This document shows positions 4,059-59,718 of a DNA stretch of 64,000 nucleotides, one piece after another. The stretch comes from a virus (taxonomy: Duplodnaviria; Heunggongvirae; Uroviricota; Caudoviricetes), in IMG/VR virus record IMGVR_UViG_2585427757_000006; one strand, written 5' to 3'. The notes under the pieces were generated by a model, which did no database searches, was not told where the DNA came from, and saw only the letters and a program-made list of their open reading frames with translations. Both the position numbers and the translations under genes were made by a program. Position 1 is the first letter of the stretch. Each line of letters begins with the position of its first letter.

Positions 4059-6092
4059 TTACTTAACCTGGTGGCCAGGTTTAGCACCAGCATCCGGGCT
4101 TAACAGGAAGATATCTTTCCCCCCGGGGCCAGCAGCCATTACCATGCCTTCGGAGATACCAAAGCGCATTTTACGCGGTGCCAGGTTGGCCACCATAATG
4201 GTGTGACGCCCGATCAGTGCCTGCGGATCTGGGTAGGCAGAACGAATACCGGAGAAGACATTGCGTTTTTCACCACCGAGATCCAGCGTCAGGCGAAGCA
4301 GTTTGTCAGAACCTTCTACAAACTCTGCGTTTTCAATCAGCGCCACGCGCAGGTCAACTTTGGCGAAGTCGTCAAAGGTGATAGTTTCCTGAATCGGGTC
4401 GTCAGCCAGTGGGCCAGTTACCGGTGCGGCTGTGGCTTTCACTTCTTCTTTGGATGCTTCCACCAGTGCTTCAACCTGCTTCATATCGATGCGGTTATAC
4501 AGTGCCTTGAACGGATTCACTTTATGGCCCAGCAGCGGTTGCTGGATACCATCCCAGGTCAGTTCTGTATTCAGGAATGCTTCTGCACGTTCAGTCAGTT
4601 TCGGCAGTACCGGTTTCAGGTACGTCATCAGCACGCGGAACAGGTTAATGCCCATAGAGCAAATCGCCTGCAGATCGGCATCGCGTCCTTCCTGCTTTGC
4701 CACCACCCACGGAGCCTGTTCATCAACATAGCGGTTAGCCAGGTCAGCCAGTGCCATGATTTCACGGATAGCTTTGCCAAATTCGCGGCTTTCCCATGCT
4801 TCGCCAATCACTTCAGCGGCATCAGTAAAGGTTTTGTACAGTTGCGGGTCAGCCAGTTCGCTTGCCAGCACGCCGTCAAAACGCTTGTTGATAAAGCCTG
4901 CATTACGGGAGGCCAGGTTAACCACTTTGTTAACGATATCGGCATTCACACGCTGAACGAAATCTTCCAGGTTGAGATCGATATCATCAATGCGCGAAGA
5001 GAGTTTCGCAGTGTAGTAGTAACGCAGGCTGTCGGCGTCAAAATGATTCAGCCAGGTGCTGGCTTTAATAAAGGTGCCGCGAGACTTGGACATCTTCGCG
5101 CCGTTCACCGTCACATAGCCGTGAACAAACAGGTTGGTCGGCTTGCGGAAGTTGCTGCCTTCCAGCATGGCAGGCCAGAACAGGCTGTGGAAGTAAACGA
5201 TATCTTTGCCGATGAAGTGGTACAGCTCGGCGGTGGAGTCTTTCTTCCAGTATTCGTCGAAGCTGGTAGTGTCGCCGCGTTTGTCGCACAGATTCTTGAA
5301 GGAACCCATGTAGCCAATCGGCGCGTCCAGCCAGACGTAGAAGTATTTGCCCGGTGCGTTCGGAATTTCAAAACCGAAGTAAGGTGCGTCACGGGAGATA
5401 TCCCACTGTTGCAGGCCAGATTCAAACCACTCCTGCATTTTGTTTGCCACCTGCTCCTGCAACGCACCGCTGCGGGTCCATGCCTGCAACATTTCGCTGA
5501 AAGAAGGCAGATCAAAGAAGAAGTGTTCGGAATCACGCATTACCGGTGTAGCGCCAGAAACCACTGATTTCGGCTCGATCAGTTCCGTCGGGCTGTATGT
5601 CGCGCCGCAGACTTCACAGTTATCGCCGTATTGATCCGGCGCTTTACATTTCGGGCATGTGCCTTTTACAAAACGGTCCGGCAGGAACATGCCTTTTTCC
5701 GGGTCGTACAGCTGAGAGATGGTGCGGTTTTTAATAAAACCGTTCTCTTTCAGGCGAGTATAGATAAGCTCGGACAACTGACGGTTCTCTTCGCTGTGCG
5801 TCGAGTGATAGTTGTCATAGCTGATGTTAAAGCCTGCGAAATCAGTCTGATGTTCCTGACTCATTTCGCCAATCATCTGTTCCGGTGTGATACCAAGCTG
5901 CTGTGCTTTCAGCATGATTGGCGTACCGTGGGCATCGTCGGCACAGATGAAATTAACCTCGTGGCCGCGCATTCGCTGGTAACGAACCCAGACATCAGCC
6001 TGGATGTGCTCCAGCATATGGCCGAGGTGGATTGAGCCGTTAGCGTACGGCAGCGCGCACGTCACCAGAATTTTCTTCGCGACTTGGGTCAT
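4059..6092 (-). CDS. metG: methionine--tRNA ligase
   Basis: 677-aa product from [40 protein letters not shown] motif, C-terminal tRNA-binding domain; start trimmed from track ORF to the conserved N-terminus. Confidence 0.95.
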
Positions 6093-6249
6093 AGTAGGCA
6101 TTACTTCTTTGTAGTGAAAAGGGGCTTGATAGTAACAAAATGGCCTTATGTCTGCCATGTGATAACAGCATTTCTCATAAATGATTAAATGTCGTAGCTG
6201 GAGTACACTACAAGGCGACAATTGCGCAAATTAAAATAAAGGAGACGGG

Positions 6250-12845: not shown

Positions 12846-13436
12846 CTATTTGTTATAAACAAAACCAATATCTTTCTTGTGAGGCATATCTGCTGCTGAA
12901 AAAGCTGCGATCTTCGCGAGTCGATCACATATTTCATTTTCACGATGCCCGGCGTGACCTTTAACCCACTTCCAGCGAACATTATGTCGACTTGCGGCCT
13001 CATCCAGACGCTTCCACAGATCAACATTCTTTACCGGTTTTTTGTCAGAAGTCATCCATCCATTGCGTTTCCACCATTTCATCCACTGTGTCATGCCGTT
13101 TTTCAGATACTGGCTATCAGAGTGCAAAATAACGTTGCATGGATATTTCAAACGCTCCAGCCCGATAAGTGCCCCCATCATCTCCATGCGGTTATTGGTG
13201 GTGCTATGAAAACCATCTGAGAACTCGCGTTCCTCACCACGATACTGGAGAACGATACCGTAACCGCCCGGGCCACCCGGATTTTTAAGGCAAGAGCCAT
13301 CACTAAAGATTTTCACGGTTTTAAGCTGGGGATTGAACTCTACGACAGGCGTTGTGGGATTGGTGCGGGGGGAATTTTTGTTTTTGGCTTTTTTGCGAGT
13401 TTTTGCTTGCGATCGGGCTGGTGTCTTCGTCGTCAT
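12846..13436 (-). CDS. rnhA: ribonuclease H (RnhA-like)
   Basis: [34 protein letters not shown] motifs; start set at MTTKT with SD aggag; basic N-terminal extension. Confidence 0.85.
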
Positions 13437-14018
13437 ATAAACTCCTGAATCAAGCGCCGCGCCGATTTTTCCTCGCGCGTGCGCACACGCGTGCGTGTTA
13501 ATAATTATTAAAATAAACAAATTACTTCCCAGAACAGGTTTTTATAAACCTGAACTGAACGAACGAAGTGAGTGAAGTTCACCTCGAACGAAGTGAGAGG
13601 TTGTCTTTTCAGGTAATACTCTCCCAGGGAGGTGAGTATAAAAATCTCTCACCAACCTGGTCGTTTCATAACCTGAAAAGTTATGGTCTAAGTCTACTGC
13701 CAGCTTAGACTTGGGAAGTTATGGATGACAGCACCCCAGAACCGAGATCTTCCCACACTTTATGAAGGGGAGTACTGGATTCAACCTCTCGAAACACCCC
13801 AGACTCGACAATCATAAAGTGACCCTTGTCTCTGCTCACTTTGGTTCCCCCTTCCCCGACACCTAAACGGCACCAGTTCTACGCTGGTAGTGAGCTTTTT
13901 TAAACCTGACGCCAGTGACGCTTACCCCCACCCATCAGGTCGAGTCTCCAGTCTACGACTGGAAACTATCAGATCTTAGCACTTACAATTCACTTTATGA
14001 ATAGTTTGTACTTATCTA

Positions 14019-14273
14019 TCATTGTGATTGATTATTTTCTCTACCATGTAGTTGAACATTCAAGGCAAACACCTCATTGATCAACTCACCTAAAAGCTGT
14101 TCAACAAGTTCGCGATGCTCGCCAAGATGCAAGCACTTAATTGCCCATTCGTACAAGTTGAAAGCCTGCTCACGATCTTTCATCATTTCACGAGCCTGGG
14201 CCAGAAAATCGCTCTCTACGAGCGCAACGACATTAGTCGGGTATGACATGTTGGTTTCCTTAAAGTGGTTCAT
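14019..14273 (-). CDS. hypothetical protein
   Basis: 84-aa ORF. Confidence 0.35.
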   Translation of the reverse strand: MNHFKETNMSYPTNVVALVESDFLAQAREMMKDREQAFNLYEWAIKCLHLGEHRELVEQLLGELINEVFALNVQLHGRENNQSQ

Positions 14274-14434
14274 AAAATCGATTTTAAAGCGTCTGCGAAG
14301 GGGTTCTAGTGGATTCTGTAGTTATGTTCAGGTCTGGAGTCTCTGATACAAAACAGCCTTCTTCCGTATATTAATAATTAATATGTAGTTATTTATATAT
14401 ACAGAAGCAGGCTAATTACAGACACCAGAACAAA

Positions 14435-30140: not shown

Positions 30141-30365
30141 TTATTCACATATCCACAGGATAGATCCTAATAAAGAGATCCATAGATAGATCCTTATATA
30201 GATCAAATAAGATCCCCGATCGCTGTAAGCCGCGCCACGACTGGTCTGAAGTCATGTTCATGTATGCTGTCAGCGGTAATTGATAGTCTGTCAGCGGTTC
30301 ACCGTATGCTGCCAACTGTTTTTGGTATTCTGTCAGCGGCAAATCAAGTATGCTGTCAGCGGTTG
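30141..30365 (+). promoter_or_regulatory. plasmid replication origin (oriR-like): DnaA-box-like 9-mers, GATC cluster, five iterons
   Basis: ttattcaca and atatccaca 9-mers; six GATC within 30160-30222 in agatcc heptamers; five copies of atgctgtcagcggt-like iteron up to the repA SD. Confidence 0.75.
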
Positions 30366-30383
30366 AATGACAAAGGTGTCCAC

Positions 30384-31478
30384 ATGTCCACAAAAAATAA
30401 AAAAGGTAAAAATAACAAAGAAGTAGAAGATAACATCGACAACTTTGAAGAAGGTTCCCTTGAATTGTACACAGGGGAACTTGTCCCTAATAGCAACAAT
30501 ACAGTCCAACCAATTGCGTTGATGCGACTGGGGTTGTTCGTCCCCACGCTTAAGGGAACAAAATACAGTAAACGTAACAAGCCAAATGAGATCGATGCTT
30601 CAAAGGAGCTTGTCCAGCTCGAAGTAGCCCGTTCTGAAGGCTATTCCGATATCAAGATAACCGGTCCTCGTCTCGACATGGATCATGATTTCAAAACGTG
30701 GGTGGGCGTTGTGCGTTCGCTGGCAGAATACGGCGAACCTAACGGTCGTGTCGAGTTAAGCATCACGAAATTTGCGAAGTTTTGTGGCTATCCATCGTCA
30801 CAGATCCGCAAAACACTCCGCGACCGGCTTACAAACAGTCTTTTGAAGATCATGCGTACAACTCTGTCTTTCCAGAGAACGTATGAAGAAAAGAACGTCG
30901 ACGGCTCTAACAAGATCTCGCTTCTGATGGTGCACCTCATCAATAGCGTGGACTACAACGAGCAGAAAGATACGGTGGTGTTCTATGCAGAACCGAAGCT
31001 GGCCGAACTATATCGCTTTGACCATAAGGTTCTTTTGCAGTTAAAGGTTATCAATAAGCTACCACGCAAAGAAACAGCACAGGCTCTGTACACCTTCATC
31101 GAAAGTCTTCCAACCAAGCCTGCGCCGGTATCGCTTGCTCGATTGCGTGCGCGACTCAATTTGAGTAGCAGGAATGTCAGCTCGCAGAATCAGACTATAC
31201 GTAACGGCTTAAAAGCTCTCCAAGATTTGGGCTATCTCGAATACAGCGAGATTAAGCGTGGGCGGTCGATCTATATCCAGATTCACAGCCGCAATCCAAA
31301 ACTCAAAGTCGCACCGCCAAAACCTGAAGACATCGAACCCAAAAAACCAGATGAGAAAGCCGGGGAAATTGATGCCAAACAGAACATTATCAATAAGATA
31401 ACCGAACTTTCGCAGAATTTGACGCCTGAAAATATCAAGATGATTGAGATCCTTTCCAATAGTCTCAAACTGCTTTGA
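30384..31478 (+). CDS. repA: iteron-binding replication initiator RepA (P1/RepFIB-like)
   Basis: NSNNTVQPIALMRLGLFVP, GYSDIKITGPRLDMDHDFKTW, YTFIESLP, HSRNPKLK resemble P1-type RepA; start set at MSTKN with SD aggtg; track ORF 5-prime part is read-through of iterons. Confidence 0.85.
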   Translation: MSTKNKKGKNNKEVEDNIDNFEEGSLELYTGELVPNSNNTVQPIALMRLGLFVPTLKGTKYSKRNKPNEIDASKELVQLEVARSEGYSDIKITGPRLDMDHDFKTWVGVVRSLAEYGEPNGRVELSITKFAKFCGYPSSQIRKTLRDRLTNSLLKIMRTTLSFQRTYEEKNVDGSNKISLLMVHLINSVDYNEQKDTVVFYAEPKLAELYRFDHKVLLQLKVINKLPRKETAQALYTFIESLPTKPAPVSLARLRARLNLSSRNVSSQNQTIRNGLKALQDLGYLEYSEIKRGRSIYIQIHSRNPKLKVAPPKPEDIEPKKPDEKAGEIDAKQNIINKITELSQNLTPENIKMIEILSNSLKLL

Positions 31479-33159: not shown

Positions 33160-36994
<3,835 letters not shown>

Positions 36995-37008
36995 AATTGT
37001 AAATTCCC

Positions 37009-38172
37009 TTAATCAAAATTCTTCTGTTTCATTGCCTCAGCCGCTTTTTGCAGCGGTCCTTTCAAGGCTTTTTCTAACTTTGTCATCTGCTCTAAGTGCC
37101 ACGCAACCGCTTGGGGCCACGTCTCTTTATTAAACCCATCAGCTTTGGTCGAAAACTGAATACGGCAAGATTTCTTCTCATCCAGCCTCATCCACTCAAG
37201 TTCTGCACCAAAAGCATGTTCAATGTCCTGTTTGGACTGACTCAACAAGTCAAAAAGGTATTTATTCTCTTCGGTAACCCCACGGCTGATCCAAAGCTCT
37301 ACTCGAAGCTCTTTTTGCAGAAATATCAGGTTATACGGACACCCACTTAACCCTGAGCCTGCTGATAACCAGTGATCTTTGCTTGGGCTAATGTTGTTAT
37401 AGAGTTGGCAAACGCTTTTCTGAAACGCCTCTAAGGCACGCTCCCAGTACTCGCGACGCACCGTATGGCGGTTTTTAAGGACCACTTCGGTGGTTTTTTC
37501 TTCCGCTTCCTTGGCATTAATGCCGATCATCAACTCTTTCGCTTCTGGCGTTGGAATGATCTGGTCAATATTAATCAGTAGCTGTTCACCCAGTGAATAA
37601 GGCGTGATTTTGAAGCAGGCAATGCTAATGCCTTGACCCAATAACCACAGCGCGGTGCTGGTCACTTCTTTGCGAAAGTTTGCCGCAACTAGCATAATAC
37701 GCTGGCTGTTACCCAGGTTGAGCTTTAACTCATCCAGATCGGGCGCATCCAAAAATTCACATATTCTCGCCGAAGCACTTGCAGGGGCATTTAACAGGTC
37801 AACCTCTGCTGTTACAGGCTCATAGCGATCTAAGTACTGCTGGTAAATGTCAACTATTTGTGCTTTGGTTAAACTGGCACAGTAAGAGGCATATTTAAGG
37901 GCCTGCCACACCACATCTCGGCCACTGTCGTCCAGCTTATTTTCAATAATGACCAAGTTGCCATCTTTATCCAGTGCCAGTAAATCTAATCGTTCACGGG
38001 TGTCATCAAAGCCATCGAACTCTTTTTGAATAATCAACAACTCTTCACCCAATGCGGAAGGTTCGTGTGCCAACCACTCCTGAAGATGCTTGCGCTCAGT
38101 AAAGCCCAACTCACTGAACTTCTTTGTCCTAACAGGACTAATCCTGTTAGTTTGATGATTTACCGTGAACAT
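37009..38172 (-). CDS. PD-(D/E)xK nuclease-fold protein of unknown function embedded in type I R-M operon
   Basis: N-terminal D-x(n)-E-x-K pattern LDLLALDKDGNLVIIENKLD; 387 aa; tightly packed between hsdS and hsdR. Confidence 0.45.
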   Translation of the reverse strand: MFTVNHQTNRISPVRTKKFSELGFTERKHLQEWLAHEPSALGEELLIIQKEFDGFDDTRERLDLLALDKDGNLVIIENKLDDSGRDVVWQALKYASYCASLTKAQIVDIYQQYLDRYEPVTAEVDLLNAPASASARICEFLDAPDLDELKLNLGNSQRIMLVAANFRKEVTSTALWLLGQGISIACFKITPYSLGEQLLINIDQIIPTPEAKELMIGINAKEAEEKTTEVVLKNRHTVRREYWERALEAFQKSVCQLYNNISPSKDHWLSAGSGLSGCPYNLIFLQKELRVELWISRGVTEENKYLFDLLSQSKQDIEHAFGAELEWMRLDEKKSCRIQFSTKADGFNKETWPQAVAWHLEQMTKLEKALKGPLQKAAEAMKQKNFD

Positions 38173-38181
38173 ATTCGCGTC

Positions 38182-39462
38182 CTATTGCTCAACCATTTCT
38201 GGGGTGATTTTTATTTTTCCTGTCACGGCGCTGTTGATCAGGGTGGTTTTGTATTCTTTAAGCTTTTCAATCTGCGACTTTTGGATATCAATCGTGCGAT
38301 TCAGATCTGGCTCAATTCCTTCAATGAACGAAATTATTTCTTGAATTTCATCTTTTGGTGGCACTGGAACCAATACACTTGCAAGACGATCCCTTGTTAA
38401 TTTTGGCTGTGCCGCACCAGAAATATATACCGTATAGTCCAATCCGCTTAATAATTCGGCCCAGTATTTAAAACCATGAAATTTTGGCTTAATAATATGT
38501 GCATGGTTATTCACCCAATACTTTCCAGTTGCAACAAAAGCCAATGGTGTTGACTTGCTTAGCAAATTCGCGCCATCTTCAGCGATCAAGATTAAATCTT
38601 CATCAAAGATGTAGTCATCAACATAATCGATAACACCACTTGCTCCGTAATACGGATATACGCCCTGTCTCGACTCTCTCTCAACTGCGCTTATTGGAAC
38701 TCTTCTACTGTTAAGAAACTCAAACGCATATCTCAATGACATTAAGTTCCAATGCGCTGGAATCTTACCAATCCAATCCACACCGGAGTCTTTCATTGGC
38801 ACATTGGGATCAAGCCCTTGGGTCACCGCCTGTTGGATGATGATCTGCTTACGCTCTTTCAGCAGGCTAATTTGCTGCTCTTTGATCGAAATCGCTTCGT
38901 CGATTAGAGCGGTTTTCTTGTCGAGAAAATTTGCAATTAGGGACTGCTCTTCTTCTGAAGGCAGAACAAAAGGAATCACCTTCATCCGTGCTTTTGAAAG
39001 GTCCCACTGACCAATCCTTACACCATCTGATGCACTACCAAAAAACGATACATATAACTTACTGCGTATCGCCCAATTGAAAAACTCAGGATTTATTGCC
39101 TTTGTAAAATCAAAAATAAAATACGCAGGACTTACAATTCCAGTGAACTTTGATACACCGTAAGAACCCTGCCACGCTTTCATTTTATTCATTCCAAATT
39201 GACCTTTCTCAAGCTTTTTATAGCCGCTAAGATCATCTGGTATAAAATTGTGATTTGACTCTTGATTATCCACGTCTCTCTCGATAACACCTTGTTCGCG
39301 TGTTATCGAAAGTAGTGGCAATTCAGGGCAGTTTTTGACCGACACCGGAGATAGGCACGAGCCTAACTTAACCAAGTCCCAATGCTCTGGAATCTCGCCA
39401 ATCCACTCATAACCAGAGTCACTATATTGATCATACTTTAGCGTTGAGGTAATGCTTTCCAT
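38182..39462 (-). CDS. hsdS: type I restriction-modification specificity subunit
   Basis: 426 aa, two-repeat architecture with conserved central and C-terminal helical spacers; 1-nt overlap with hsdM stop. Confidence 0.8.
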   Translation of the reverse strand: MESITSTLKYDQYSDSGYEWIGEIPEHWDLVKLGSCLSPVSVKNCPELPLLSITREQGVIERDVDNQESNHNFIPDDLSGYKKLEKGQFGMNKMKAWQGSYGVSKFTGIVSPAYFIFDFTKAINPEFFNWAIRSKLYVSFFGSASDGVRIGQWDLSKARMKVIPFVLPSEEEQSLIANFLDKKTALIDEAISIKEQQISLLKERKQIIIQQAVTQGLDPNVPMKDSGVDWIGKIPAHWNLMSLRYAFEFLNSRRVPISAVERESRQGVYPYYGASGVIDYVDDYIFDEDLILIAEDGANLLSKSTPLAFVATGKYWVNNHAHIIKPKFHGFKYWAELLSGLDYTVYISGAAQPKLTRDRLASVLVPVPPKDEIQEIISFIEGIEPDLNRTIDIQKSQIEKLKEYKTTLINSAVTGKIKITPEMVEQ

Positions 39463-41891
39463 TAGGCTTCTCCCTGAACTTCCGCCACTTTCACGCCTAA
39501 TATTTGTGCAATCAAACCATCAGCCTTCTGCTCTAGATTGATAATGTCAGTTGCTACTTCTTCAAGACTACGTAATGGCTTATGCAGATAGAAATACTTA
39601 TTGAAGCTGATTTCATAGCCAATTTTTACCGTATCTAGGTTTATCCATGCTTCATCGACATGAGGCTTCACTTCATCTAGGAAGTACTGGTAAATGCTTT
39701 GCTTTAATGGAACAGATTCTGTATCTCGCAGGTCTGAATTGGTCTCGTAAGTGATATACTCGCCTTTTTTACCGCCTTCTGCTGAAGGAACGGGGTAATA
39801 ACCAAAATCTGGCAAGTCAGCGACTTCACACTCATAGCGCTCCAGCAGGTCGTTTAATTTATCACCCGTTAATTTAACTACCTTTTTAACCACTTTCTTG
39901 GCGGTTTCGTCATACCAGCTCACCGCGTGAAGAATGGCATTTTTCTCAGGTGCTGAAAGCTTAATAGCATGGGCTTTTAGCGATTTATCAACTTGGGTTT
40001 TAAAGCTATTGAAGTCATCAAATTCAATGCTACCGATGTCAGCCATCAGCGTTTGTGCAGTTTCAAGCAATGCTTTTAGCGCCAGCCAGTGTTTCACATC
40101 AAGCAGTTTGGCCTTAGCCTTAGCATTGAGACTGATGTCGTTATCTTCACACCAAGAAAGAATGTCTTTCTCGATGGATTTTAAGAAGCTCTTTTTCTGA
40201 TCTGACCCGTAGCCAGTTTTTTCGTAAACACGTTCGCCGTGCTCTGCGTACACGTACTCCATCACTTCACTAAGTTGCTTATCAAAACGCAGTGGGGCTA
40301 TGGCATCTTGAGTAAACTTGGCTTTGCGGCGATCTGGGCGCTCGATAGTGACTTTGTAGTAGCCAAAATCGTCATTGCTGAATACCTTACTGGCGATGCC
40401 AACAGGATCATTGTTTGCATCCAGTGCTCTTTCAACATCCTTACACGCGAGGTAAGTATCGGTAATTTCCGTGATGTGCTCAGGCGCAAATTCGCAGTTT
40501 TTGTTACCTAAGTTCTTGCGCAACTTACGGTAGAGCAAGCTGGCATCAATTAATTGCACCTTACCTTTACGCGCCTCAGGTTTATTGTTGCTCAACACCC
40601 AAATGTAAGTGGTAATGCCAGTGTTATAGAACAGGTTATTAGGTAACTGAACGATGGCATCTAGCATGTCGTTTTCAATGATGAAGCGACGAATATTACT
40701 TTCACCACCGCCCGCATCTCCGGTAAAGAGCGATGAGCCGTTATGAACAGAGGCAATCCGGCTGCCTAATGGACTTACGCTCGGATCTTTCATCTTGTTG
40801 ACCATCTCCATTAAGAAAAGCAGCTGGCCATCACTCGAACGTGGCGTGGCATCCACCACTTCGAGATTTCCCCAATAGTCTTTCAGGCTAACCTTAAAAC
40901 GCGGGTCAATCACATCACTGCCGTCTTTAATGTACTTCTGTTCAGACGCCCAACTCTTACCGTATGGCGGGGTAGACAACATAAAGTCAAAGCGTGAAGC
41001 CGCAAACTCGTCGGTAGACAAGGTTGAGCCTACCTTGATGTTCTCAGGGTTGTTACCTTTGATCATCATGTCCGATTTACAAATCGCGTAGGTCTCGTCA
41101 TTGATCTCTTTGCCGTAAAGGTAAATATCTCGGCTGTCGTTCGGGTATTTCTCTTCAATGAAGTTTTGAGATTCAGTGAGCATACCACCGCTACCACACG
41201 CAGGGTCGTAAACGGTCATGGTCAATGGTAGCTGCTCTTTCACTGGGTCAAAAACCAAGTGTGTCATCAGCTCAATCACTTCCCTAGGTGTAAAGTGCTC
41301 ACCGGCTTCTTCGTTATTCTCCTCGTTGAACTTACGGATCAACTCTTCGAACACGTACCCCATACCCAGGTTAGTAAGGGCTGGCATCTTGTTGCCATCT
41401 GGGTCTTCGATCGTTTCATGAGTTAAGTTGATGTAAGGGGAAACAAACTTTTCGACGACATCAAGAAGGACTTGCTTTGAGGCCATGTGACGAATTTGCG
41501 ACTTGAGGTTAAAGCATTCAATGATTTCTTTAACATTATCGCTAAAGCTAAGCAGGTACTCTTCAAAGTTGGCGAGTAATATCTGTTGGTTATTCGTTGC
41601 GGTGTTGAACAGGGATTTCAGGGTCCATTTAGATGTATTGTAAAAAACATAACCACTAGCCGCCTTCAATGGTTCATCATCAAGCTCCGTGGCTTGCATC
41701 TCTTCTTTTTGGAACTTGACCTCTTCAAGCACGGCTTCTTTGGTGGGTTCAAGTAACGTATCTAAACGTCGTAATACCACCATAGGTAAAATCACATCGC
41801 GGTACTTACCGCGAACGTACACATCACGTAAACAGTCGTCGGCAATGTTCCATATAAATGAGATGAGCTTGTTATGTACACTATGATCCAT
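39462..41891 (-). CDS. hsdM: type I restriction-modification N6-adenine DNA methyltransferase
   Basis: N-terminal FIWNIADD, motif I PACGSGGML, motif IV LSTPPYG; start set at MDHSVHN. Confidence 0.85.
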   Translation of the reverse strand: MDHSVHNKLISFIWNIADDCLRDVYVRGKYRDVILPMVVLRRLDTLLEPTKEAVLEEVKFQKEEMQATELDDEPLKAASGYVFYNTSKWTLKSLFNTATNNQQILLANFEEYLLSFSDNVKEIIECFNLKSQIRHMASKQVLLDVVEKFVSPYINLTHETIEDPDGNKMPALTNLGMGYVFEELIRKFNEENNEEAGEHFTPREVIELMTHLVFDPVKEQLPLTMTVYDPACGSGGMLTESQNFIEEKYPNDSRDIYLYGKEINDETYAICKSDMMIKGNNPENIKVGSTLSTDEFAASRFDFMLSTPPYGKSWASEQKYIKDGSDVIDPRFKVSLKDYWGNLEVVDATPRSSDGQLLFLMEMVNKMKDPSVSPLGSRIASVHNGSSLFTGDAGGGESNIRRFIIENDMLDAIVQLPNNLFYNTGITTYIWVLSNNKPEARKGKVQLIDASLLYRKLRKNLGNKNCEFAPEHITEITDTYLACKDVERALDANNDPVGIASKVFSNDDFGYYKVTIERPDRRKAKFTQDAIAPLRFDKQLSEVMEYVYAEHGERVYEKTGYGSDQKKSFLKSIEKDILSWCEDNDISLNAKAKAKLLDVKHWLALKALLETAQTLMADIGSIEFDDFNSFKTQVDKSLKAHAIKLSAPEKNAILHAVSWYDETAKKVVKKVVKLTGDKLNDLLERYECEVADLPDFGYYPVPSAEGGKKGEYITYETNSDLRDTESVPLKQSIYQYFLDEVKPHVDEAWINLDTVKIGYEISFNKYFYLHKPLRSLEEVATDIINLEQKADGLIAQILGVKVAEVQGEA

Positions 41892-42123
41892 TTTCTTTTC
41901 CTGTTCAGTGTTGGTTGCACCCCACAAAGTTGCTGCAACGGCTTCACTATAAATTTAAAATTCTGTTCTTTCTGTAACGCCTAAATGGCCTCTACATCGT
42001 TCGATTAACTTGTTCTACCCGGCGCTAGATTTAAGTTTATGACACCATAAAGTGAATCGCCACAGGTTTAATAGACTGAATCGCCACAGGTTTAACAGAC
42101 ACCTCAGAGTCATTTAAGATGAC

Positions 42124-59160: not shown

Positions 59161-59247
59161 TGGCGGAGAGTAATGGAATCGAACCATCATCGCTTGCGCA
59201 ATGGGACGGTTTTCAAGACCGCTTGAGCACCATGCTCCCTACTCTCC
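59161..59247 (-). tRNA. tRNA-Ser(UGA), type II with long variable arm, CCA encoded
   Basis: Acceptor ggagagt/actctcc, anticodon loop cttgaaa, T-loop ttcgatt; D-loop unusually short. Confidence 0.6.
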
Positions 59248-59471
59248 GGCCGTTGTGGTGGCCGGTACTGAATCTCCGGCATACGGTGCAGCCAATTAGG
59301 ACTACGGACGATCACCGCTCGCGAAAGGGAAGATTTGCGGCCGCATTTCCCTAACATCCAAGAAAGCTATCGCATCAGTCTGCGAATCCACCACAACGGT
59401 AAGATCACTACCTTTCGACCAGTCATTGTGCACATGAACGACGATTAACCGTAATGATCTTATCGTTGTAT

Positions 59472-59547
59472 TGGTGCCGGTTAGCGGACTCGAACCGCTG
59501 ACATCCTGCTTACAAGGCAGGCGCTCTACCAACTGAGCTAAACCGGC
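59472..59547 (-). tRNA. tRNA-Thr(UGU), CCA encoded
   Basis: gccggtttagctcagttggtagagc D-arm, anticodon loop cttgtaa, T-loop ttcgagt. Confidence 0.75.
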
Positions 59548-59551
59548 AATT

Positions 59552-59638
59552 TGGTGGGGAGTGATGGAGTCGAACCACCCGAGTCGCAATGACAGTAGAT
59601 TTACAGTCTACCCCGCTGCCCCTACGGACTAACTCCCC
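59552..59638 (-). tRNA. tRNA-Tyr(GUA), long variable arm, CCA encoded
   Basis: Acceptor ggggagt/actcccc, anticodon stem gtaga/tctac with loop ctgtaaa, T-loop ttcgact. Confidence 0.65.
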
Positions 59639-59643
59639 TAAAT

Positions 59644-59718
59644 TGGCGATGGTGGGTGGATTCGAACCACCGACCAGTTGGTTAACAGCCAACTGCTCTA
59701 CCGCTGAGCTACACCATC
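59644..59718 (-). tRNA. tRNA-Asn(GUU), CCA encoded
   Basis: Acceptor gatggtg/caccatc, D-arm gctcagcggtagagc, anticodon loop ctgttaa, T-loop ttcgaat. Confidence 0.75.

Follow-up and report, generated by a model that had tools for sequence, protein, structure and literature searches.

The window analysed here, a 64-kb stretch of an E. coli SSU5/pHCM2-like phage-plasmid, contains a 582-bp gap (13437-14018) between the start of an RNase H gene and the end of the next minus-strand gene at 14019. A preliminary description had drawn attention to a long ORF-free region at this position; the region is real and slightly larger than was claimed, and holds no conserved ORF. The RNase H start codon is the ATG at 13436, and the ORF extension to 13520 is a TTG artefact of the ORF listing. 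The gap is the widest intergenic space in the 12.7-kb annotated neighbourhood, where all others measure 185 bp or less, and the surrounding module is one of nucleotide metabolism and replication, encoding an exonuclease, Dam, DHFR, ThyA, RNR and a Pol III alpha-type protein. The features of the locus, given in minus-strand order, are as follows.

14019-14249, minus strand: gene for a 76-aa all-helical protein (phrog_5343), always immediately upstream of the RNA
13996-14001, minus strand: candidate -35 element TTCATA (TTTAcN in other clades), from the upstream segments of nine loci representing the clades
13973-13981, minus strand: candidate extended -10 element TGcTAAGAT, 17 nt from the -35, in invariant alignment columns
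13521-13967, minus strand: predicted ncRNA gene of ~445 nt, from conservation, alignments, RNAalifold and pair counts, strand tests and CYRAN_81 RNA-seq
13945-13966, minus strand: P1, 5'-terminal hairpin from the alignments and the MFE fold; its sequence is wholly different between clades, and the hairpin is always there
13904-13940, minus strand: P2, long hairpin with the invariant GAUGGGUGG.GG; double changes in 4 of 13 pairs, all cells (100%) paired
13835-13894, minus strand: P3 (13890-13894 with 13835-13839); 3 of 5 pairs with double changes; encloses P4 and the invariant purine tract GGGGAAGGGGGAACCAAAG
13856-13876, minus strand: P4, inside P3; G-U/G-C/A-U alternation
13756-13821, minus strand: P5 (13813-13821 with 13756-13764), from pair counts; encloses P6 and the nearly invariant GAGAGGUUG
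~13796-13805 with 13774-13782, minus strand: P6, inside P5; CUGG/CCAG swapped to CCAG/CUGG in the JZ38 clade
13712-13755, minus strand: P7 (13749-13755 with 13712-13718), enclosing P8 (13732-13736 with 13723-13727); 100% paired, 4 double-change pairs
13667-13710, minus strand: block of P9 (13701-13710 with 13686-13696; 5 of 10 pairs with double changes) and P10 (13679-13685 with 13667-13673; from pair counts)
13624-13660, minus strand: P11, hairpin whose loop varies; 2 of 10 pairs with double changes
13551-13600, minus strand: block of P12 (13597-13600 with 13582-13585; invariant) and the adjoining P13 (13576-13581 with 13551-13556; 3 of 6 pairs with double changes)
13535-13552, minus strand: P14, 3'-proximal hairpin caggttt/aaacctg, from the MFE fold; mixed strand signal
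13474-13493, no strand assigned: GC-rich palindrome CGCGTG-cgca-CACGCG behind an AT-rich spacer, at the border to a variable cargo slot
12846-13436, minus strand: RNase HI gene, the commonest downstream neighbour, replaceable

The 76-aa protein belongs to a tiny family, with only 29 protein clusters among 5.8 billion, all at least 61% identical. Searches of Pfam, PDB sequences and Foldseek returned no relatives, no Rop-like match and no recognisable RNA-binding fold, and its gene is poorly expressed in the lysogen. On the other side, the left edge of the RNA is a hot spot at which RNase H is replaced by DUF262, BetT or proteins without an assigned function, and at two loci (L212 and L215) the downstream gene lies on the opposite strand. 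Loci in which RNase H is replaced retain the GC-rich palindrome, and the BetT variants carry a truncated form of it; on neither strand does it make a canonical terminator.

Across Escherichia, Salmonella, Klebsiella, Enterobacter, Citrobacter and Cronobacter, a core at ~13524-13966 shows 91-99% conservation. Column identity is 0.91-0.99 over 13551-13850 compared with ~0.5-0.8 in rnhA, the small gene and the Dam gene, and identity between loci is 76-80% over 2.3 kb compared with 88-95% for the gap alone, making the RNA core the most conserved sequence of its neighbourhood, above the adjoining protein genes. The most divergent type, that of the JZ38 clade, is 57% identical to the main type (43% divergence) and is represented by six sequences in the alignment. 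The element is confined to SSU5-like phage-plasmids of the Enterobacteriaceae; PLSDB has 687 plasmids that carry it, and among 5,426 complete E. coli genomes it is present in 232 (~4%). The S. Typhi plasmid pHCM2 and numerous clinical plasmids from Klebsiella and Enterobacter have it as well. Each phage-plasmid carries a single copy, and searching the window with a covariance model (R1) built on the central domain gave no second one. None of the records examined has an RNA feature annotated over the element; the only annotated features that overlap it are a 44-aa ORF in phage Cyrano and, in some records, RNase H calls that extend too far.

One scan of genome contigs added two Kluyvera loci, and tracing the clusters of the 76-aa protein yielded five further variants of the RNA and, in one case, a non-homologous sequence occupying the slot. 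Queries with a second conserved block and with a neighbour-protein alignment for distant homologues returned the same contigs only. The divergent relative L185 has another structured sequence in this slot, one that folds equally well and is followed by RNase H genes. This sequence did not match the R1 covariance model; a 17-mer scan for its relatives gave chance matches only, PLSDB gave none, and Rfam at E up to 1 gave nothing relevant. One further locus, L187, was discarded as a C-to-T converted (bisulfite-like) assembly. The hairpin motif TCGAACGNAGTGAGAGGTTG also occurs in two unrelated viral contigs (L035 and L062), where it was judged a chance match because it lies inside a 442-aa ORF.

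Covariation was assessed from an RNAalifold consensus and pair counts on 42 non-redundant sequences. The minus-strand consensus has an energy of -98.45 kcal/mol and 95 pairs, 31 of them with double changes, while controls with slid partners gave 3-7. Paired cells reached 99.3% against 31-49% in these controls, the covariation score was 0.242 against at most 0.062, and none of 500 shuffles attained the observed values. Most compensatory changes stem from a single deep split, that of the JZ38 clade with its six sequences, and the independent events are therefore far fewer than the cells. Further independent compensatory changes were found in L184 and Buttiauxella, including one more in P2 in Buttiauxella, and in P6 in L184 and L212. 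P14 varies as CAGGG/CCCTG in C. sakazakii, and its G.T pairs fall on different strands, plus in Klebsiella and minus in L041. A long-range pairing of 13782-13790 with 13596-13604 is a candidate addition to the fold. The preliminary description had asked for folding and covariation across relatives, and the covariation found is strong.

The same data bear on the strand. Folded singly, the minus strand has an MFE of -167.7 kcal/mol (z = -4.8) and the plus strand -140.1 kcal/mol (z = -4.2), and the plus-strand consensus reaches -60.2 kcal/mol with 77 pairs, 21 covarying against 33 on the minus strand by the same count. Read as minus-strand RNA the same helices are 99.3% canonical, read as plus-strand RNA 86.9%, and G-U/Watson-Crick alternation is seen at 32 pairs on the minus strand and 4 on the plus. 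These tests favour the minus strand, the direction of transcription that had been guessed from the start.

The smaller motifs named at the outset can be placed within this fold. The direct repeat GAACGAAGTGAG is present in two copies (13561-13572 and 13586-13597), which, read on the other strand, are the UCAC..UUCGUUC loops of P12 and P13; at up to 1 mismatch there are 3 matches in the 64-kb window against 1.37 expected, the third, with 1 mismatch, being at chance level. The inverted repeat caggttt (13535-13541)/aaacctg (13546-13552) is the stem of P14, and ctacgctggtag was located at 13879-13890. Long stretches are invariant, namely GAUGGGUGG, GGGGAAGGGGGAAC, GAUCU.G.UUCUGGGG and the twin loops; their conservation beyond what pairing needs suggests recognition surfaces. 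No reading frame is common to all clades on either strand, and indels shift the frames. It had been proposed that homologues with a disrupted protein gene would speak against an RNA; relatives were checked for this, and the RNA structure is kept through their frameshifting indels. As judged by sequence comparison, these patterns show a region constrained as RNA structure rather than as protein.

A sigma-70 promoter candidate of the RNA's own is supported upstream of P1, from which minus-strand transcription would run in the direction of 13967. All clades inspected, the 57%-identical one among them, preserve the arrangement of a -35 element, 17 nt and TGnTAnnAT, and T1, A2, A5 and T6 of the -10 hexamer are invariant in 42 of 42 aligned sequences. 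A regular-expression scan of 52 distinct upstream segments, blind to the Klebsiella clade and with a spacing window that missed the L010 and JZ38 types, found a plausible -35/-10 pair at 16-17 nt in 40 segments and only an implausible -10 hexamer in two more. In a consensus promoter scan, the pair fell below threshold. An operator-like inverted repeat adjoins the promoter. The motif tacttatctatc, earlier singled out as the promoter, is present at 14009-14020, 2 nt from where it had been placed; the conserved promoter lies instead at 13973-14001.

Given this promoter, the 5' end would lie near 13967, and the 3' end may fall where sequence conservation stops, at ~13521-13524. A scan of both strands of the gap found no intrinsic terminator (GC-rich hairpin and U-run), including after the conserved core, and a U-rich 3' tail occurs in some clades only. 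A Rho-independent sRNA was accordingly rejected. A plus-strand hairpin followed by a T-run had also been reported: a T6 run exists at 13896-13901, the scan called no terminator there, and on the favoured minus strand the run is an A-rich linker.

Transcription of the locus is supported by published RNA-seq of Cyrano, a 97.6% identical phage-plasmid in which CYRAN_81 is a 135-nt feature inside the gap. CYRAN_81 has log2 FPKM values of 6.8-10.35 over five conditions, in counts whose strand is not stated, compared with 3.1-5.8 for the upstream gene and 2.6-5.0 for RNase H (PMC9928086). The signal is 3-7 log2 units above both neighbours in these unstranded counts; in LB it is 12-fold above the phage-plasmid median (PMC9928086), and inside macrophages it rises ~10-fold in one data set. 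In lysogeny the RNA locus ranks with the more strongly expressed parts of the phage-plasmid, and the data support strong, independent transcription in the plasmid-prophage state of this near-identical relative.

Taken together, the gap very probably represents a separate minus-strand gene, in the same sense as its flanking genes, that has its own sigma-70 promoter and encodes a structured ncRNA of ~445 nt. The original suggestion of a candidate ncRNA is thus borne out by the lack of a conserved ORF, constraint greater than that of the neighbouring genes, a covarying fold and strong transcription in a near-identical phage-plasmid. Transcription would proceed from the -35 TTCATA (14001-13996) across a 17-nt spacer and the extended -10 TGcTAAGAT (13981-13973) to a start near 13967, and the transcript would open with the 5' hairpin and fold into ~14 helices (P1-P14). 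As to its role, we tentatively suggest, at rather less than an even chance, that the RNA is stable and trans-acting and that its folded shape lets it bind or sequester one or more proteins. The always-adjacent 76-aa helical protein would be a candidate partner, and the RNA may be part of the maintenance or early-replication programme of SSU5-like phage-plasmids.

A broader proposal, which we consider speculative and unlikely as it stands, is a conserved three-part module of the 76-aa helical protein, the ~450-nt RNA and usually RNase H, in which the RNA would be the working part of an undescribed mechanism and would come in exchangeable, non-homologous specificity types. The mechanism may be an R-loop or primer-type lytic origin, or a ribonucleoprotein for copy number or the lysis-lysogeny decision, and the types may be the main one, the 57%-identical JZ38 type and the unrelated sequence of L185 in the same slot.

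The main rival to a shape-based, protein-binding RNA is a replication primer or R-loop origin RNA like ColE1 RNA II, an unlikely reading. A persistent RNA-DNA hybrid would form in the AT-rich 3' stretch, the neighbour's or the host's RNase H would make the primer, and this would feed the phage-plasmid's own replication machinery at a lytic or auxiliary origin. Consistent with such a role, in 62 of 82 distinct genuine contexts the RNase HI gene follows directly in the same orientation, RNase H genes again come next to the different structured sequence of L185, the locus sits within the nucleotide-metabolism and replication module, and conserved G-rich tracts are followed by an AT-rich segment and the GC palindrome. 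RNA-based origins are also known in extrachromosomal mycobacteriophage prophages (PMC7157519). The GC skew argues otherwise: it is steady at about -0.08 from 8 to 21 kb, with no turn at the RNA locus as an origin signature, and changes sign at ~7 kb and ~29-31 kb, the latter beside the Rep3-type RepA replicon 16 kb from the RNA. Moreover, the RNA has no RNase H gene beside it throughout the JZ38 clade and in plasmids with swapped cargo, an RNA I-like antisense regulator has not been demonstrated, and constraint extends over all 445 nt rather than being focused at the 3' hybrid-forming end.

A functional or second transcript on the plus strand, for example an antisense partner of ~90 nt running from ~13522 to a hairpin and U-rich tract at 13582-13612, is improbable. 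The plus strand also folds well, as its z-score and 77 consensus pairs indicate, a -10-like hexamer TAAAAT lies at 13509-13514, and the twin loops read GAACGNAGUGA on this strand, which could form tandem G.A pairs under a GNA triloop with N as the sole variable position. Because two short hairpins (13535-52 and 13872-88) carry plus-strand G.T pairs in some clades, a plus-strand transcript may cover part of the region. Overall energy and pair statistics nevertheless favour the minus strand, no conserved plus-strand -35/-10 pair was seen, and the sequence that lies upstream on that strand is not conserved.

Less probable again is a cis-acting part of an mRNA, either a long 3' UTR of the 76-aa gene or a 5' leader or attenuator of RNase H or cargo genes. 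The orientation is that of both neighbours, there is no clear terminator toward either, and CAACCUCUC can pair with GAGAGGUUG or with a local GAGG in mutually exclusive fashion, the long-range option being backed by one compensatory change in L184. Set against this are expression 10-30 times that of either neighbour, the conserved promoter and a downstream gene that is of unrelated function among loci and in L212 and L215 is encoded on the opposite strand, which is evidence against a leader role. A riboswitch or cis leader was rejected on this variation of the downstream gene.

That the region acts at the DNA level we regard as quite improbable, whether as iterons or repeats bound by protein, as a site for packaging or recombination, or as a homology anchor for cargo exchange at the left border. 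The two exact 12-bp direct repeats 25 bp apart, the cargo replacement hot spot at the left edge, the very high DNA identity and the palindrome at the border would all fit, but compensatory changes keep 14 helices through 43% divergence, which double-stranded binding sites do not need. The strong asymmetry of G-U over A.C is a signature of single-stranded RNA, and the locus is transcribed far above its neighbours, with a conserved promoter pointing into it. One or more small proteins are scarcely credible: the 44-aa ORF at 13705-13839 on the minus strand is annotated in one phage record as CYRAN_81 and has RNA-seq reads mapped to it, but it starts with GTG, is split in Klebsiella, truncated in the S. 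Concord-type and absent from the JZ38 clade, there is no ORF, on either strand, that all clades possess, Pfam gave no matches, and substitutions track base-pairing rather than codon position.

The RNA belongs to no described RNA family in Rfam 15. A search of the whole window with its 4,227 models at gathering score, of the kind called for in the preliminary description, matched no family at the locus and gave only three tRNA matches, at 59.5 kb; with E up to 10 on 13300-14300, the best match was an HCV stem-loop (21.5 bits against a threshold of 56) on the GC palindrome. No earlier description of such an RNA in SSU5/pHCM2 phage-plasmids was found in the literature. ARAGORN found no tRNA or tmRNA in the gap, and only four tRNAs at 59.2-59.7 kb. 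A tRNA-like element at 13834-13896, with a T-loop-like TTCTACG, was rejected, having no ARAGORN match and a helix with A.C mismatches on the plus strand. ToxI-like antitoxin RNAs consist of tandem repeats of ~36 nt followed by a toxin gene; a type III toxin-antitoxin RNA was rejected here, where there are only two 12-nt repeats, both hairpin loops, and no conserved downstream gene.

Heavily structured ncRNAs of more than 400 nt are rare in bacteria, and several cases that were followed up proved to have unusual biology. The Enterobacteriaceae are the group best mined for RNAs, and this element is essentially unannotated despite its presence there. It offers structural work a new RNA family that is well defined and can be tested. 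Its role could reveal how a widespread phage-plasmid family is maintained or induced, one whose members carry resistance and defence cargo directly beside the RNA.

Several known systems offer points of comparison. ColE1 RNA II and the mycobacteriophage RNA origins (PMC7157519) are likewise structured transcripts of ~0.5 kb from extrachromosomal elements, with a link to RNase H, an AT-rich 3' side and expression in the plasmid state. The RNA described here differs from both in that a RepA-type replicon lies elsewhere, there is no skew signal, RNase H is dispensable as a neighbour and there is no sequence similarity. The c4 RNA of P1/P7, the CB RNA of N15 and the CI RNA of P4 are also plasmid-prophage ncRNAs made during lysogeny, with clade-specific sequence types and an operator-like inverted repeat beside the promoter. 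These immunity RNAs are antisense effectors of 60-80 nt processed from mRNAs, whereas the present RNA has ~445 nt and 14 helices, and a search with its loop motif found no complementary partner within the window beyond chance. 6S RNA, CsrB/RsmZ and the phi29 pRNA are abundant and stable and work by shape or repeated motifs rather than by long antisense pairing, and the twin same-loop hairpins resemble such repeated protein-binding sites. The RNA differs from this group in having ~6 GGA motifs in 445 nt by manual count, about the chance number, no 6S-like central bubble and no Rfam match. From ROOL, GOLLD, OLE, HEARO and raiA it differs in having no sequence or structure match to them, in its fixed synteny with the 76-aa protein gene and in its limitation to SSU5-like phage-plasmids of the Enterobacteriaceae. 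It resembles these RNAs in its length of several hundred nt, its many covarying helices, its long invariant loop or single-stranded segments, its lack of coding capacity and, probably, its own transcription unit, and GOLLD and ROOL are, as is this RNA, carried by mobile or prophage DNA.

The gap at 13437-14018 (582 bp) is the largest within the annotated neighbourhood, where all genes lie on the minus strand in the order 269-aa protein, Dam-type methyltransferase, 76-aa protein, gap, RNase HI, and small proteins.

Genes flanking the gap and the plasmid initiator gene
14019-14249, minus strand: 76-aa protein gene
12846-13436, minus strand: RNase HI gene (rnhA)
30264-31478, plus strand: Rep3-type RepA, plasmid initiator, on the strand opposite to its neighbours

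We conclude that the gap holds a genuine, unannotated gene encoding a large structured RNA (~445 nt, 13521-13967, helices P1-P14), most probably on the minus strand. The large ORF-free gap reported in the preliminary description is real, and all of the motifs listed there were found in it, the last one 2 nt from its reported position. RNA annotation of the gap was absent from every record examined. Among 60 PLSDB records listed, only a few over-extended rnhA calls overlap the gap, and none of the 25 E. coli records listed has any feature over it. In the record of Salmonella phage SSU5 the RNase H ORF runs on into the gap, and the record of Cyrano, a phage-plasmid 97.6% identical to the window, carries a 44-aa ORF within it (CYRAN_81, window 13705-13839). 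This ORF begins with GTG; in Klebsiella it is split, the S. Concord type has a shortened form, and the divergent Cronobacter JZ38 clade lacks it. No ORF is common to all clades on either strand, and the small ORFs of the gap have no Pfam match. Indels of 1-2 nt are tolerated; the refuting condition of the preliminary description, a disrupted protein-coding gene in homologous elements, was not borne out, as relatives retain the RNA structure across frameshifting indels.

To profile conservation, an alignment of 14 diverse relatives spanning 2.3 kb was scored at each position for the fraction matching the window base. This fraction was 0.91-0.99 over 13551-13850 and ~0.84-0.85 on to 13950; it was 0.41-0.58 in rnhA and 0.61-0.88 in the genes for the 76-aa protein and the methyltransferase. 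A second deep clade, of the Cronobacter sp. JZ38 type (~57% identical), also retains the element. It was found in 687 PLSDB plasmids from Klebsiella, Escherichia, Enterobacter, Salmonella, Citrobacter, Cronobacter, Shigella, Kluyvera, and Raoultella, in Buttiauxella (one NCBI assembly), in 12 phage records, and on ~80 IMG/VR contigs. Of 5,426 complete E. coli genomes, 232 carry it, in every case as one full-length copy.

The RNAalifold consensus of 42 non-redundant sequences in the minus-strand orientation has 95 pairs at -98.45 kcal/mol, 31 of which stay paired through changes on both sides, although most double changes trace to one deep split and independent events are thus far fewer than cells. 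When partners were slid by 1-3 columns, double-change pairs fell to 3-7, standard pairs from 99.3% of 3,988 cells to 31-49%, and the covariation score from 0.242 to 0.062 or less; the observed pairing values were not reached in any of 500 shuffles. Folding with covariation analysis was a check named in the preliminary description, and with the lack of a common ORF its result supports the candidate ncRNA proposed there. Helices P2, P3, P5, P6, P7, P9, P11, and P13 each hold several compensatory pairs. Further sequences add independent events: U-A replacing G-C and a GAGUCUGG/GAGACUGG swap in the relative locus L184, and ACCGG/CCGGG in P2 with a rewritten P5 in Buttiauxella. The window sequence alone folds at -167.7 kcal/mol (z = -4.8). 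Two nearly invariant 9-mers at 13596-13604 and 13782-13790 (CAACCUCUC and GAGAGGUUG, RNA sense) are perfect complements across ~180 nt, with one compensatory change for their pairing (L184) and one mismatch against it (Buttiauxella). This pairing competes with the local P12 hairpin, and the two may form a conformational switch.

Read as minus-strand RNA, the consensus helices contain 503 G-U cells; read as plus-strand RNA they would contain only 9, so they are 99.3% canonical on the former strand and 86.9% on the latter. On the minus strand, 32 pairs alternate between G-U and Watson-Crick. The plus-strand MFE is less stable by 27.6 kcal/mol, an independently predicted plus-strand fold reaches only -60.2 kcal/mol with 77 pairs, and the same counting gives 21 covarying pairs on the plus strand versus 33 on the minus strand. 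In some clades two short hairpins, at 13535-52 and 13872-88, have G.T pairs on the plus strand, which leaves room for a partial plus-strand transcript.

In each clade inspected, the minus strand upstream of the RNA carries a -35-like hexamer (TTCATA, TTTAAA, TTTACG, or TTTACC by clade), a 17-nt spacer, and (CAG)TGnTAnnAT, in which positions T1, A2, A5, and T6 of the -10 hexamer never vary among the 42 sequences.

Predicted promoter elements
14001-13996, minus strand: -35 element, from clade comparison upstream of the RNA
13981-13973, minus strand: extended -10, from clade comparison and invariant columns

These positions place the probable transcript start near 13967. The predicted transcript would open with a hairpin that differs wholly in sequence between clades and is kept in structure. 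Directly upstream of the -35 element, in the window (~14003-14022) and in loci L003 and L212, is a clade-specific inverted repeat, perfect (GGTAAGTACTTACC) in SSU5 and Buttiauxella and degenerate in the window, that resembles an operator; its sequence overlaps the 76-aa gene's stop codon. A second, imperfect inverted repeat of ~67 nt (14357-14423) occupies the AT-rich spacer between the 76-aa and Dam methyltransferase genes and gives a reverse-strand self-match in several relatives. The plus-strand T-run of the preliminary description corresponds to an A-rich linker in the RNA, and no canonical terminator was found 3' of the conserved core on either strand.

In Cyrano, CYRAN_81 was reported at log2 FPKM 6.8/6.9 (LB), 9.3/9.0 (B1), 6.9/6.9 (B6), 9.0/8.2 (MB1), and 10.35/10.3 (MB6), under the sample codes of the source, whose methods leave the strand-specificity of counting unstated (PMC9928086). 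The upstream gene was at 3.1-5.8 and RNase H at 2.6-5.0 (PMC9928086). CYRAN_81 was thus ~10-fold higher in MB6 than in LB overnight culture (log2 10.3 vs 6.9; PMC9928086, S1 table). The labels MB1 and MB6 probably denote the 1-h and 6-h samples of bacteria from infected macrophages.

Where the left neighbour has been replaced by DUF262, BetT, or genes of other kinds, the conserved block persists, so the left (3') border of the RNA is a hot spot of cargo exchange. Across the border at 13437-13530, RNase H is swapped for DUF262, BetT, unknown, or opposite-strand genes in loci L011, L012, L015, L016, L017, L212, and L215, with the junction on or within the conserved GC-rich palindrome of 13474-13493.

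We favour a role in which the RNA would act in trans through its shape, binding a protein in the plasmid-prophage state. The 76-aa protein, predicted to be all-helical with moderate confidence (pLDDT 72.5) and with no recognisable relative found, co-occurs one-to-one with the RNA. The main rival is an RNase-H-linked replication primer or R-loop RNA, kept alive by the 62 of 82 distinct genuine contexts that have RNase H as the next gene downstream. It also draws on the divergent relative L185, whose small protein is 70% identical and where a 712-nt sequence (L185 2726-3437; also in L186) fills the same slot, here bounded by the gene for the small protein and a pair of RNase H genes. That sequence has no detectable homology to the RNA by nhmmer or covariance model and no match in PLSDB or Rfam, and folds at -171.7 kcal/mol on the sense strand, a stronger signal than that of the window RNA (z = -6.2 vs -4.8; antisense z = -2.2). 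A further locus, L187 (Logan SRR8137545), was set aside as an artefact of the public assembly: almost every C appears as T, a bisulfite-like conversion, and translating its called gene does not give the protein looked up. Against a primer or R-loop, the composition of the locus is not origin-like and the RepA replicon lies elsewhere, 16 kb away; a brief sign change in GC skew at 29-31 kb, near RepA, is consistent with a plasmid origin there. A cis-acting leader was rejected since two relatives have the downstream gene in the opposite orientation.

The Rfam scan proposed in the preliminary description matched no Rfam 15 family, ARAGORN detected nothing in the gap, and the literature searched held no previous account of this RNA. 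Elsewhere in the window are unusual cargo genes, a full-length methionyl-tRNA synthetase (4059-6221, minus strand) and a type I restriction-modification system (HsdR and HsdM domains; 33977-41927, minus strand), and a minus-strand cluster of four tRNA genes (59161-59718; Ser-TGA, Thr-TGT, Tyr-GTA, Asn-GTT), three of which are reported by the Rfam gathering search. The 701 bp around the gap are 100% identical to ~110-kb non-mobilisable E. coli plasmids and 82-86% identical to SSU5 and Klebsiella phage-plasmids, and the gap is 90% identical in pHCM2 of S. Typhi. These identities make the window part of an SSU5/pHCM2-type phage-plasmid.
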